11,855 bases of DNA from a virus (taxonomy: Duplodnaviria; Heunggongvirae; Uroviricota; Caudoviricetes): IMG/VR virus record IMGVR_UViG_2675903621_000013, positions 1 to 11,855 of that record; one strand, written 5' to 3'. The notes beneath the pieces were generated by a model, which saw nothing but the letters and a program-made list of their open reading frames with translations, did no database searches and was not told the origin of the DNA. The stretch's first letter is position 1, and the number at the start of each line of letters is the position of its first letter. The translations under genes were made by a program, and so were the position numbers. Positions 3,470 to 9,344 of the stretch are shown one piece after another.

Positions 3470-3934
3470 TTATCTGAGGCATTGCTCTCGAATGTATAGC
3501 TGTGCCCCTTCAAGTTGTTTTTGCATTATTATCAGTCGCGCTCTGAGGGTGAAATAATCCCGTTCAGCGGTGTCTGCCAGTCGGGGAGAGGCTGCATTAT
3601 CCACGCCGGAGGCGGTGGTGGCTTCACGCACTGACTGACAGACTGCTTTGATGTGCAACCGACGACGACCAGCGGCAACATCATCACGCAGAGCATCATT
3701 TTCAGCTTTCGCATCAGCTAACTCCTTCGTGTATTTTGCATCGAGCGCAGCAACATCACGCTGACGCATCTGCATGTCAGTAATTGCCACGTTCGCCAGC
3801 TTCAGTTCTCTGGCATTTTTGTCGCGCTGGGCTTTGTAGGTAATGGCGTTATCACGGTAATGATTCAGCCCCAGACTAAGCGCACCACAGGCCACCAGCA
3901 GGGCAATGATGACCACGCACAGTACGCGGTTCAT
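3470..3934 (-). CDS. Rz: Rz i-spanin (inner-membrane spanin), lambda-type
   Basis: 154-aa product ...[111 protein letters not shown]... is near-identical to lambda Rz as I remember it. Confidence 0.95.
3532..3714 (-). CDS. Rz1: Rz1 o-spanin (outer-membrane lipoprotein), embedded in Rz in the +1 frame
   Basis: 60-aa product [60 protein letters not shown] has a lipobox (VVGC), a proline run, and near-identity to lambda Rz1; it is nested entirely within Rz. Confidence 0.9.
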
Positions 3935-3935
3935 T

Positions 3936-4034
3936 TCACCACCAGCGTATCTGACCGATGAAATAACCGGAGGCCATAATCACAAACACCAGCCAGATAA
4001 GAATGAACTTCCAGGTGGATAATTTTTCAGCCAT
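3936..4034 (-). CDS. Candidate 32-aa single-pass membrane peptide, translationally coupled to Rz
   Basis: My own translation of the minus strand: ATG GCT GAA AAA ... TGG TGG TGA gives [38 protein letters not shown] Shine-Dalgarno lies 8-9 nt upstream, and the TGA stop sits 1 nt before the Rz ATG. Not in the ORF track (below its length cutoff). Confidence 0.35.
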
Positions 4035-4109
4035 CACTCGAATCTCCCGAATCAGTTTGCTAAAATCAAACACACTTTCTCCTTTGACTTTTCCGGAGTC
4101 AGGAAACAC

Positions 4110-4143
4110 AAAACCCCGCTTGGTGCCAACAAACGGGGTTTTT
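4110..4143. terminator. Bidirectional intrinsic-terminator-like hairpin between endolysin and Rz
   Basis: AAAACCCCG (4110-4118) pairs with CGGGGTTTT (4134-4142) around a 15-nt loop. It is followed by TTTTTACTTTTATT on the plus strand and by TTTTGTGTTT on the minus strand. Confidence 0.5.
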
Positions 4144-4232: not shown

Positions 4233-4766
4233 TTATCTGTCGATACCCCAGCACGCCAGCGCGCTCTCCTGGTCACGACGGGATACCTGACCGTAGCAGT
4301 TGTTTGAACGAATACGGCAGTCTCTGCCACCGTCCTTAATCCACCAGCGAATCGCCTCACACGCTCCCCTGCGATCACCTGCATTAATTCGTTTATAAAA
4401 CGTCGACGGGAAACACTTACCGGGACCAATGTTGTACGGACAGAATGACGCGATCCCCGCTTTCTGGGGTTCGCTCAATGGCACTTTGATGTTTTTCTCC
4501 ACCCACGCCAGCGCTTTATCACGCTCAATGGCGTTAACCTGGTCGCATTTTTCCTTCGACAACTTCATGCCCGGAACGACAGGTTTGCCATCCACCATGA
4601 TGGCACCACGGCAGATGGTCCAGATACCTGCACCATCACGGTATGCCGTGGTGTGATTGCCTTCCTTTTCATCCAGAAACTGGTCGAGAATGTCAGGCGC
4701 AGACGCACCAGCGGCAATCAGCGCCAGAACGGCAGCCGACAGGCCGTATTTGATTTTGGTGTTCAT
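4233..4766 (-). CDS. R: SAR endolysin (T4-lysozyme-family muramidase with N-terminal signal-anchor-release domain), phage 21 R / Qin rrrQ type
   Basis: 177-aa product with an Ala/Gly-rich weakly hydrophobic N-terminus (YGLSAAVLALIAAGASA) and an E-x8-D-x6-T catalytic spacing (EGNHTTAYRDGAGIWT), close to the phage 21 R E-8-D-5-T triad. No Shine-Dalgarno upstream; the start is 36 nt after the preceding ORF. Confidence 0.93.
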   Translation of the reverse strand: MNTKIKYGLSAAVLALIAAGASAPDILDQFLDEKEGNHTTAYRDGAGIWTICRGAIMVDGKPVVPGMKLSKEKCDQVNAIERDKALAWVEKNIKVPLSEPQKAGIASFCPYNIGPGKCFPSTFYKRINAGDRRGACEAIRWWIKDGGRDCRIRSNNCYGQVSRRDQESALACWGIDR

Positions 4767-4802
4767 GGATATATTAAATATTCAGCCGCTGTCCCTGGCC
4801 CA

Positions 4803-5360
4803 CTAAATACGCACTTTAAGATAAGTCAGCCCCGGATGAAGCCAGTAAGCCGGCACTTTTTTAAAGGGCGGATTATCAAAATCACGAAGAAGAGCCTCCC
4901 GCACAACTGCATCCTTGTCCGCACCACTGGCCAGCGCTTCAATCTCAGCAGCTATCTGCAGATATCCCATGCAACGGCCAACGCGCTTCATCAGCCCCTG
5001 CTTTTTATTGTTCTTCAGGTAATCAATGGCAAATTCAATGAGCTCCTCACTGTGCTGGTGCGATGGAGGTGTTACTTTCCCATTTTCTGAGATGGTTATT
5101 TTCCCGGCATCACCGGATACAACAAAGGATGGCCGGTTACACTCCCATTCCAGCTCACTGAAATTATCATTATGAATACTGAAACACTCTGCGAGATTTT
5201 TGCTCATCACTTTCCGACAATAATCGTCAAACGCAGCAAACTGCTCATCGCGGCGTTTTTTTTCATCTTCAGAAGGCATCAGCGTCGACAGTTTTTTATT
5301 CAGTTCAGCAATTTCATTTTCCAGGCGACTGAAGCGCTGATTCATTTCTTCATGGTTCAT
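4803..5360 (-). CDS. Hypothetical 185-aa protein inserted between holin and endolysin (same position as ydfR in the Qin prophage)
   Basis: GGGGAGAG Shine-Dalgarno upstream of the ATG at 5358-5360, tightly packed against the holin stop. The N-terminus is coiled-coil-like (EEMNQRFSRLENEIAELNKKLSTLMPSEDEKKRRDEQ). No family recognised by eye. Confidence 0.75.
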   Translation of the reverse strand: MNHEEMNQRFSRLENEIAELNKKLSTLMPSEDEKKRRDEQFAAFDDYCRKVMSKNLAECFSIHNDNFSELEWECNRPSFVVSGDAGKITISENGKVTPPSHQHSEELIEFAIDYLKNNKKQGLMKRVGRCMGYLQIAAEIEALASGADKDAVVREALLRDFDNPPFKKVPAYWLHPGLTYLKVRI

Positions 5361-5363
5361 TAT

Positions 5364-5579
5364 TCACTCTCCCCGGGCGGCCTTACGCCGGTCCTCTCTG
5401 ATTTTGAAATACAGGTTAGTCAGATATGTCAGCAGCCCAAACAGCAGACTTCCCAGCACGCCTATTGCCGCCCACTGAGACGGGGAAACCCTGTCCAGCA
5501 ACTGCAGGAACCAGTAGCCCGTTCCCACCGCTGACGTGGTGTATGACACACCTGTTGTGATTTTTTCCATCTGGTACAT
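5364..5579 (-). CDS. S: Pinholin, phage 21 S21-type, with dual-start motif (antiholin from M1, holin from M4)
   Basis: [71 protein letters not shown] (71 aa) resembles S21 as I remember it. GGGAG Shine-Dalgarno upstream of the ATG at 5577-5579. The ORF-track start at 5657 is an upstream in-frame extension without an RBS. Confidence 0.9.
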
Positions 5580-5610
5580 ACCCCGTCTCCCGTTATCCGG
5601 AAGCTGACAA

Positions 5611-5644
5611 CAATAAAAAAAGCCACCAGTTAAGTACTGATGGC
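5611..5644 (-). terminator. Intrinsic-terminator-like hairpin (minus strand) between nanS-p and the lysis cassette
   Basis: On the minus strand, GCCATCAG..CTGGTGGC (8-bp stem with one mismatch) is followed by TTTTTTTATTG. Confidence 0.45.
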
Positions 5645-5729
5645 TCTGATAACTCATGCAGGCATCTCAGACGACCCACTGACACTACCGGTGAGTTTAA
5701 CGATACCTTCCATTTGACTGGCTCACTTT

Positions 5730-7843: not shown

Positions 7844-8179
7844 ATGAAGTGGATTGTGATTGATACAGTTATCCAGCCATCATGCGGAATATCTTTTTCA
7901 GTCATATGGAGTAAAATAAAATTAATAATCTGGTATCAATCGGATGCTTTCTTACCTCCTGAAAGTATATTTACACTGACTCACACAGGTATCATGCTCA
8001 ATAACAAAGTGCTACCTGTAACCATTTACAACGTAGTACCATTCAATAAAACATTCTGGAATTTAATCAAAAACAGCCAGGAATGCCCTACAAATACAGA
8101 TAACGTATTGAATGAATGCTTTAATAACCGTTGCACTCTGCAAATATGTCCTTATGGGCTAAAACAACAAAGTCCATAA
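7844..8179 (+). CDS. Hypothetical AT-rich 111-aa ORF, divergent from the late operon
   Basis: AAGGA Shine-Dalgarno 6-7 nt before the ATG; possible sigma70 promoter upstream (TTTACA ... TATACT around 7766-7795). Cysteine-rich C-terminus ([26 protein letters not shown]). No minus-strand ORF of 60 aa or more anywhere in 7724-8626. No family recognised. Confidence 0.35.
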
Positions 8180-9090: not shown

Positions 9091-9167
9091 TGGCGCGTTG
9101 TACTGGATTCGAACCAGTGACCGATTGCTTAGAAGGCAATTGCTCTGTCCGGCTGAGCTAACAACGC
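9091..9167 (-). tRNA. tRNA-Arg (anticodon UCU)
   Basis: Minus-strand 77-nt sequence folds as a canonical cloverleaf: acceptor GCGTTGT/ACAACGC, D stem GCTC/GAGC, anticodon stem ATTGC/GCAAT with loop CTTCTAA, T stem ACTGG/CCAGT with loop TTCGAAT, and an encoded CCA. Confidence 0.9.
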
Positions 9168-9180
9168 TGAATACCGATAA

Positions 9181-9261
9181 TGGACCGCCATCGGGGACCA
9201 GCCCCCCGCACCAACAACCCTGTTATCGTGTCGTCTGCTCTTCCTGATAAGCTAATGGCGG
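9181..9261 (-). other. Degenerate tRNA-like element (possible pseudo-tRNA) between the two tRNA genes
   Basis: 81 nt with an encoded CCA end, a 7-bp acceptor stem (CCGCCAT/ATGGCGG), a D-stem-like GCTT/GAGC and a T-stem-like CGGGG/CCCCG, but a non-canonical T loop (GGCTGGT) and no foldable anticodon arm. Spacers to the flanking tRNAs are 7 and 13 nt. Confidence 0.3.
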
Positions 9262-9268
9262 TTTGTGA

Positions 9269-9344
9269 TGGTGGCCCTTGCTGGATTTGAACCAGCGACC
9301 TGGCGATTATGAGTCGCTCGCTCTCACCACTGAGCTAAAGGGCC
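9269..9344 (-). tRNA. tRNA with CAU anticodon, most likely tRNA-Ile2 (ileX/ileZ-like; lysidine-modified to read AUA)
   Basis: 76-nt cloverleaf: acceptor GGCCCTT/AAGGGCC, D stem GCTC/GAGC, anticodon loop CTCATAA, T stem GCTGG/CCAGC with loop TTCAAAT, encoded CCA. Close to E. coli ileX as I remember it. A Met identity cannot be excluded from sequence alone. Confidence 0.85.

Follow-up and report, generated by a model that had tools for sequence, protein, structure and literature searches.

An apparent orphan C-terminal domain of modular YdfR-family proteins in the holin-endolysin slot of a Stx-phage-like Escherichia coli prophage

The lysis region and its 185-residue gene

The window analyzed here is the whole 11,855-nucleotide (nt) stretch of a viral record (IMG/VR IMGVR_UViG_2675903621_000013), and our subject is ORF185, an open reading frame (ORF) of 185 amino acids (aa) located between the genes for a pinholin-like class II holin (S) and a signal-anchor-release (SAR) type endolysin (R). 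ORF185 is a genuine coding gene, beyond a chance ORF. From alignment with its homologs it appears to consist of a coiled-coil linker and an orphan C-terminal domain (C-domain), that is, the non-DUF1327 part of the modular YdfR-family proteins of PHROG 1085, and we hold this identity and architecture with high confidence.

The reality of the gene is evident from its packing, its matches and its mode of evolution. The holin stop codon (TGA, 5366-5364) and the ORF185 start codon (ATG, 5360-5358) are separated by 3 nt, and a GGAG at 5372-5369, in the last codons of the holin gene, lies 8 nt upstream of that ATG in the position of a Shine-Dalgarno (SD) sequence; the junction reads ...CGGGGAGAGTGAATAATGAAC. 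Comparison of the junctions in seven phages shows that the holin 3' end provides the SD to whichever gene fills the slot behind it. Between the ORF185 stop (TAG, 4805-4803) and the endolysin ATG at 4766 lie 36 nt, TGGGCCAGGGACAGCGGCTGAATATTTAATATATCC. The product matches PHROG 1085 (E 1.1e-112, 377 bits), its residues 1-185 corresponding to profile positions 117-296 of 296, and it has 169 database relatives. The ratio of nonsynonymous to synonymous substitution rates (dN/dS) in pairwise comparisons with homologs ranges from 0.21 to 0.59, indicating purifying selection. The sequence-only reading of this DNA, which had described a real, tightly packed and well-initiated 185-aa ORF between a pinholin and a SAR endolysin, is thus borne out.

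The predicted protein has a mass of 21.3 kDa, an isoelectric point of 6.0, a grand average of hydropathy of -0.64 and a maximal Kyte-Doolittle mean of 0.76 over 19 residues, as expected for a soluble protein. No transmembrane (TM) segment was found by hydropathy and no holin match in Pfam or PHROG, which places ORF185 outside the holins and antiholins. Its base composition is foreign to its surroundings, with 45.7% GC overall and 46.2% at third codon positions, the corresponding values being 54.6% and 66.7% in S and 53.9% and 60.1% in R. A consensus scan, which by itself gives weak negatives, found no sigma-70-like site on the minus strand at 4800-5700 and no terminator between ORF185 and R. 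The same type of scan placed two terminator-like hairpins around the S-ORF185-R unit; polymerase modified by Q would presumably read through both. We infer that the Q-dependent late promoter, which also serves S and R, is the only source of ORF185 transcripts.

The window, which matches a prophage of E. coli O55:H7 strain DEC5E (NZ_CP038383.1) with 100% identity, represents a defective prophage that resembles Shiga toxin (Stx) phages and lacks stx. Insertion sequence elements of the IS3 family flank its late region and break the large terminase gene (locus L001, 1-1134 and 14274-15487), and because of this interruption we call the prophage defective. The late genes are all on the minus strand in the layout of a Stx phage minus stx: RusA, a Q-like DUF1133 protein, a DNA methyltransferase, two tRNAs, IraM (on the opposite strand) and a SASA/NanS-p esterase are followed by S, ORF185, R and Rz/Rz1 (Table 1). 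The N-terminus of R is SAR-like (KYGLSAAVLALIAAGA). The holin starts with M-Y-Q-M (5568-5579), a dual-start arrangement like that of the S21 68/71 holin/antiholin pair.

Table 1. Features of the lysis region in the window
Feature	Coordinates	Strand	Evidence
S21-type class II holin (S), pinholin-like, 71 aa	5364..5579	-	PF04971 E 2e-32; RefSeq WP_000284510.1 'class II holin family protein'
GGGGAG Shine-Dalgarno of ORF185, within holin gene 3' end	5369..5374	-	junctions of 7 phages compared
ORF185, 185 aa, ATG start	4803..5360	-	ORF list; RefSeq CDS WP_024219164.1 'hypothetical protein'
ORF185 N-terminal module, aa 1-64, predicted helical hairpin/coiled coil	5169..5360	-	AlphaFold2 (AF2), mosaic breakpoints
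ORF185 C-terminal domain, aa 70-185, predicted three-stranded beta-meander and four helices	4806..5151	-	
36-nt spacer from ORF185 stop to endolysin ATG, A/U-rich, without SD	4767..4802	-	
SAR-type endolysin/lysozyme (R), 177 aa	4233..4766	-	PF00959 E 2e-24; PHROG 7 endolysin; RefSeq 'lysozyme'
Rz i-spanin	3470..3934	-	PF03245 E 2e-52; PHROG 13
Rz1 o-spanin ORF, embedded in Rz	3532-3714	-	ORF list
Terminator-like hairpin and T-run, just upstream of holin start (esterase/holin gap)	5619..5647	-	consensus scan only
Terminator-like hairpin, 13-bp stem, downstream of endolysin, before Rz	4110..4142	-	consensus scan only

Domain architecture, predicted structure and distribution

Homologs of ORF185 among 5.8 billion proteins came from E. 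coli and Shigella only, and they are of two kinds. Stand-alone forms of 185, 209, 213 or 217 aa start with MNHEEMNQ..., while long forms of 268, 287, 296 or 329 aa carry DUF1327 (residues 1-112) in their first ~110 residues, followed by the same C-domain. The alignment resolves three modules, namely DUF1327, a coiled-coil linker (RIxxLExxxAELNKKLS...) and a C-domain of about 115 aa. The C-domain is strongly conserved (GRCMGYLQxAAEIE...NPPFK...W..PG.TYLK.RI), with the motif H..(I/L)I...I..L...(K/R)..GR(C/A/S)MG(Y/L)LQ.AAEIE...F(D/N)(N/T)PPFK..P..W..PG..YLK.R, and every invariant column of this motif is found in ORF185 (G128, R129, L134, Q135, P165 and others). The DUF1327 part of the PHROG 1085 profile (positions 1-116) is absent from ORF185, and K-12 YdfR alone matches positions 1-112 of the same profile.

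ORF185 is therefore no enlarged YdfR, a possibility that the sequence-only reading had raised: BLASTP gave no alignment with K-12 YdfR, profile-profile comparison with the DUF1327 alignment by hhalign reached a probability of 2%, and ORF185 had no match to DUF1327 (PF07041) or any other Pfam family at E <= 0.1. The same reading had found no recognisable characterised family, and this impression held in every search made, with no match in Pfam, NCBIfam, PADLOC or PDB sequences and none by fold. Searches of ORF185 against Pfam, NCBIfam and PADLOC returned nothing significant, 11 diverse C-domain sequences compared with Pfam at E <= 10 gave noise only, and PHROG searches of the family returned only families of 'unknown function'. 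PADLOC-DB v2 gave zero families for ORF185 and the Salmonella homolog, and for the fused form one insignificant match (E 0.018). The best PDB sequence-profile match of the C-domain alignment, a PhoU homolog (E 0.019), was discarded as noise.

For structure prediction, a shallow alignment of E. coli sequences only gave an AF2 model with a mean predicted local distance difference test (pLDDT) of 56.7. Addition of Salmonella homologs (36 sequences in total) raised pLDDT to 82, with a predicted template modelling score of 0.59. The latter model has two long N-terminal helices (3-27 and 31-60, pLDDT 76-90), which fit the coiled-coil-like N-terminus seen earlier from the sequence, a disordered hinge (58-71) and a C-domain (pLDDT 84-96) composed of a beta-meander (80-97) and helices 101-117, 123-144, 151-161 and 178-184. 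For the C-domain, no structural relative was found in the PDB by fold search and no Pfam model.

The N-terminal module (~60 aa, MNHEEMNQ...) shuffles independently of the C-domain. In the Stx2_499 phage (locus L005, 2679-3164, 161 aa) and in protein P0151, the same module stands on an unrelated C-terminus of ~100 aa without a family match, and in PhiR12_1 (169 aa) it is joined to DUF1327 alone.

The missing DUF1327 domain, the existence of truncated and frameshifted variants and the IS3 insertion in the terminase gene of the prophage would all fit a decaying remnant, in which ORF185 is an N-terminally truncated and non-functional leftover of a two-domain YdfR-family gene. We regard this explanation as very improbable. 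The stand-alone form has a conserved start of its own directly after the holin stop, common to the 185-, 213-, 209- and 161-aa lineages and to hundreds of sequences. Because several diverged lineages have this start, abutting the holin stop as the fused forms do, it is not a recent accident. In the alignment, the coiled-coil part of the stand-alone form is a diverged allele and not a deletion product of the fused form, and dN/dS below 1 likewise argues against decay.

Beyond E. coli and Shigella, a word-indexed search with the C-domain profile added Salmonella enterica proteins with 38-46% identity, all annotated as 'hypothetical'. An exhaustive hidden Markov model search of 1.84 billion cluster representatives found 41 clusters, all enterobacterial and none informative on function, and the species representatives of GTDB contain three loci only, in Escherichia and Shigella. 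At the DNA level, 777 of 5,426 complete E. coli genomes (~14%) carry the C-domain, with up to five copies each, as do only five of 50,697 GenBank phage records: Stx2_95, Stx2-converting phage 86 (two) and Stx2_12E129 (two). The domain thus appears to be confined to enterobacterial (Escherichia, Shigella and Salmonella) prophages. In the Salmonella homologs the N-terminal domain is a distant relative of DUF1327 (hhalign 87%, E 4e-6; Pfam matches sub-threshold). Since these proteins also carry such a domain, the two-domain architecture appears to be old, and the DUF1327 part was probably lost or split off repeatedly. ORF185 is a natural domain-deleted variant of its closest relatives, the uncharacterised two-domain YdfR-family proteins of Stx phages, with no sign of a new kind of system.

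Comparison with the two-domain members of PHROG 1085 (phage 86 gp05, YP_794052.1, 268 aa; Stx2_95 BCI50300.1, 329 aa; the 296-aa prophage form) agrees with this description. They occupy the same slot after the holin stop, share the coiled-coil linker and the C-domain with ORF185 (84-97% identity over the C-domain) and have the short link to the endolysin (36 nt in Stx2_95), whereas ORF185 has no N-terminal DUF1327 and starts within the linker with its own conserved initiation context. The C-domain is largely invisible in RefSeq because the Prokaryotic Genome Annotation Pipeline (PGAP) annotates only the DUF1327 part of the fused gene. For example, the intact 296-aa fused gene of E. coli EcPF40 (NZ_CP054214.1; L108, 1455-2348) is given as a pseudogene, 'YdfR family protein, incomplete, missing C-terminus'; this call covers DUF1327 only, and the remainder of the uninterrupted ORF, with the coiled coil and the C-domain, has no annotation. 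The same incomplete annotation was found in eight of 12 sampled genomes.

The holin-endolysin slot and the endolysin start

DNA identity between the window and four phages ends at the holin stop codon (window 5363) and returns ~6 nt before the endolysin ATG (4772), and the same comparison places further mosaic breakpoints within ORF185 at about 5266, 5218, 5170 and 5151. The contents of the slot differ widely among related phages. The common case in Stx2a and Stx2c phages is a 114-aa YdfR; the variants are YdfR with a coiled coil (PhiR12_1), YdfR with a coiled coil and the C-domain (the fused forms), a coiled coil with the C-domain followed by a separate 75-aa DUF1327 gene (213-aa protein; loci L011-L014), a coiled coil with an unrelated C-terminus (Stx2_499), and a coiled coil with the C-domain alone (ORF185). 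A small convergent gene is often next after the slot gene in relatives. The slot between S and R in Stx-type lambdoid phages thus appears to be almost always filled, mosaic and hypervariable.

The sequence-only reading had described ORF185 as inserted, with phage 21, whose S and R genes are adjacent, as the reference. It is no special insertion, since the slot in Stx-type phages is nearly always filled, usually by the 114-aa YdfR; phage 21 is the exception and not the rule among S-R arrangements. The accompanying remark that ydfR fills the same slot in the Qin prophage was correct, the order in MG1655 being essQ-ydfR-rrrQ. Both Qin YdfR and the 114-aa forms of Stx phages share with ORF185 the position between an S21-type holin and an endolysin, and YdfR is a frequent fusion or adjacency partner of the ORF185 modules, yet it has no sequence relationship to ORF185.

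The 80 IMG/VR viral loci whose C-domains are closest comprise 43 with an intact fused gene (296, 329 or 268 aa), 24 with the 185-aa form and about 13 with truncated or frameshifted copies. The spacing from the C-domain gene to the endolysin start is 36 or 42 nt in nearly all 80. In Salmonella and in one metagenomic contig, the homolog is located between Q and the holin instead of between holin and endolysin; the neighboring holins belong to PF04971 or PF16080 and the endolysins to PF00959 or GH108, the latter beside one divergent homolog. Because these homologs precede different holin and endolysin families, the gene appears to go with the beginning of the lysis region in lambdoid prophages and not with a single position or a single family of holins or endolysins.

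In this phage group the lysis cassette broadly accepts unrelated inserts, as relatives have an N6/N4 DNA methyltransferase gene (L012, 6342-7277; L105, 5917-6846) or an Ant anti-repressor gene (L003, 1743-2312) between the endolysin gene and Rz. Directly downstream of the C-domain gene, several loci have a convergent gene for a protein of ~105 aa (PHROG 1853, unknown function; L003, 3249-3563; L105, 4722-5039; L103, 495-812), and its copies in E. coli phage 86, Salmonella and the metagenomic contig are 40-44% identical to each other. This arrangement suggests that the C-domain gene and the PHROG 1853 gene form a conserved pair. No antisense partner gene was found in the window or in the 18.5-kb DEC5E locus. 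In locus L011, an antisense gene of 95 aa (4902-5189, PHROG 10490) lies between the DUF1327 gene and R; its product has a weak partial PADLOC match to the candidate defence protein PDC-S51 (E 2.5e-5, profile positions 99-161 of 376).

The link between ORF185 and R raises the question of translational coupling. The sequence-only reading had stated that the endolysin start has no SD and lies 36 nt past the ORF185 stop, and so it is read from the sequence, with no purine-rich SD within 20 nt of the endolysin ATG. It had also suggested that endolysin translation may depend on ORF185. Extended to a full rival explanation, the main role of the gene would be translational, ribosomes leaving ORF185 re-initiating at the SD-less R start and thereby setting the endolysin level. 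We compared this start among relatives, and all seven examined have the same SD-less endolysin start, ...ATATCCATGAAC. The preceding co-oriented ORF ends 50 nt before it in loci L015 and L017, and more than 300 nt upstream, with an antisense gene between, in L003, L004, L011 and L016, so that the gaps before this start range from 50 to about 450 nt. Since the SD-less start is kept with distant upstream ORFs, sometimes with an antisense gene between, the endolysin probably initiates independently in these relatives.

Folding of the RNA leads in the same direction. The region around the endolysin start in the window is A/U-rich and folds no better than shuffled sequence (z = +1.1), and an endolysin start that is masked and then opened by upstream translation was rejected because the region is unstructured; translation of ORF185 is not needed for unmasking. 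With the same start used after gaps of such different lengths and with unstructured RNA around it, dependence of endolysin translation on ORF185 finds no support. Moreover, purifying selection on the protein implies that the product matters and not the mere act of translation.

Some features of this clade do speak for coupling besides the lack of an SD. A 35-nt leader segment present in six relatives (L003, L004, L005, L015, L016 and L017), where it holds a conserved stem-loop, GGATT-N11-AATCC, shortly before the SD-less endolysin start, is missing from the window and Stx2_95. It seems to have been lost by deletion between ATATCC direct repeats, and the loss brings the ORF stop in the clade to 36 or 42 nt from the endolysin ATG. 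The ydfR and rrrQ genes of Qin share 4 nt (ATGA). Because the 36- or 42-nt link is nearly invariant and Qin ydfR overlaps rrrQ, coupling may add to endolysin expression in this clade; as the main role of ORF185 we consider it improbable.

Functional readings of ORF185

As the best overall explanation we tentatively favor a late-expressed soluble accessory protein that is functionally tied to YdfR. That ORF185 is an accessory, moron-like factor and not a core component of the holin-endolysin-spanin system seems probable to us. A common pathway with YdfR is suggested because the C-domain is repeatedly fused with or adjacent to DUF1327 in two genera, in a linkage of the Rosetta-stone type: the two are fused in E. 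coli, split and adjacent in L011-L014, and fused again in Salmonella. A 2026 study reported, from two-hybrid and pull-down assays, that K-12 YdfR binds the catalytic N-terminal half of RNase E, for which its first 72 residues suffice, and that it co-purifies with RNA; its overexpression barely changed the transcriptome (PMC13232886). In the literature on the S-R slot gene and YdfR, we found no functional study besides this RNase E interaction screen. The accessory protein that we favor would oligomerise via its coiled coil, and its C-domain would be a protein-binding module that modulates a cytoplasmic host target late in infection. This target would lie on the YdfR/RNase E-RNA axis, with no action on the membrane or cell wall, although we consider action of ORF185 on the YdfR/RNase E axis rather doubtful.

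Several observations weigh against a tie to YdfR. The RNase E data concern DUF1327, which ORF185 lacks, and neither the window nor the surrounding 18.5 kb of the DEC5E locus contains a DUF1327 gene; because none is nearby, a partner would have to be supplied by another prophage or be unneeded. Fusion and adjacency could reflect recombination within one hot spot and not shared function. A role in lysis would likewise predict that the gene stays beside lysis genes in two genera and keeps its nearly invariant link of 36 or 42 nt to R. Finally, with IS3 in the terminase gene of the host prophage, the present-day function in this strain is uncertain.

A bolder version of this idea makes the C-domain and DUF1327 a two-part phage effector, fused or split, that targets RNase E and mRNA decay late in infection, with ORF185 acting in trans. 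Its coiled coil would pair with YdfR from co-resident lambdoid prophages, and the effector might, for example, stabilise the S-R lysis transcript or set its timing. We rate this as quite improbable, below even a mainly translational role; if true, it would be a new class of phage-encoded RNA-decay modulator inside the lysis cassette and a new route of cross-talk among prophages in one cell.

A direct role in lysis timing is the most obvious alternative to the accessory protein tied to YdfR. ORF185 would then be a cytoplasmic regulator that binds the cytoplasmic C-terminal tail of the pinholin in the manner of T4 RIII or P1 LydB, or the N-terminus of the SAR endolysin before its export in the manner of the mycobacteriophage Ms6 Gp1 chaperone, and advances or delays triggering. 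These three are small soluble, mostly helical cytoplasmic lysis regulators encoded beside holin or endolysin genes. They offer a possible model of how ORF185 could work, and its predicted helical-hairpin N-terminus may resemble small helical antiholin cofactors; ORF185 has no sequence or fold match to anything in the PDB, and the holin and endolysin families beside its homologs vary. The gene is embedded in an S-X-R unit, with gaps of 3 nt to S and 36 nt to R, the link to R is held at 36 or 42 nt in nearly all 80 loci, and the Salmonella homologs also lie directly beside lysis genes. The variety of partners (PF04971 and PF16080 holins, and a GH108 endolysin beside one homolog) argues against a specific one, many close phages carry YdfR alone in the slot, and truncated or frameshifted copies are common (~13 of 80 loci). 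ORF185 has no TM segment, and the cassette of these phages hosts clearly unrelated inserts. Taken together, we find a timing regulator unlikely, and nothing in this analysis shows ORF185 taking part in lysis.

Somewhat less likely again is lysogenic-conversion or defence cargo, that is, a moron in a recombination hot spot that helps the lysogen by superinfection exclusion, anti-phage defence or anti-defence. The foreign base composition, the hypervariable slot with its frequent extra small convergent gene, the weak PDC-S51 match of one antisense partner (E 2.5e-5) and the abundance of the domain in E. coli prophages (777 of 5,426 genomes) compared to its rarity in sequenced phages (five of 50,697 records) are all in line with cargo. 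Expression in the lysogen is, however, unlikely, as ORF185 lacks a promoter-like site and a terminator of its own, and its start 3 nt past the holin stop leaves no space for a promoter. In addition, neither ORF185 nor its homologs match PADLOC, and the window copy lacks the antisense partner. ORF185 shares deviant composition, variable presence and late location with lambdoid morons and late inserts (bor, lom, stx, nanS-p, Ant, methyltransferase). Classical morons bring a promoter and a terminator with them and are active in the lysogen, whereas ORF185 has neither a promoter-like site nor a terminator by consensus scan, and its translation appears to be linked to that of S.

Between lysis timing and cargo, the evidence leans to an accessory gene, because the Salmonella and metagenome homologs precede different holins and endolysins and ORF185 is compositionally foreign. 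The distinction matters for Stx-type phages, in which the pinholin/SAR-endolysin cassette governs the release of phage and Shiga toxin and the gene usually separating S from R is uncharacterised in the literature. With three shuffled modules (DUF1327, coiled coil and C-domain), the slot gene provides defined natural variants for questions of lysis timing, endolysin expression or host RNA metabolism. If it is mere cargo, a recurrent speculation on the regulation of Stx-phage lysis loses its source.

Three further features were noted in the window. At the stx position of Stx phages there are no toxin genes, and an iraM-like anti-adapter gene is encoded on the opposite strand (7844-8179, plus strand). 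Two tRNAs at 9091-9344 (minus strand), with anticodons CAU (Ile according to PGAP) and UCU (Arg), precede it. A small unannotated ORF of 45 aa (3936-4073, minus strand), whose GTG start is preceded by AAAGGAG, stops 1 nt short of the Rz start; its product has a single hydrophobic segment and matches PHROG 6632 (unknown function, E 1e-29). Diverged counterparts of this ORF are kept in related loci, and in some of them an in-frame stop upstream of an internal ATG leaves a 32-aa product.

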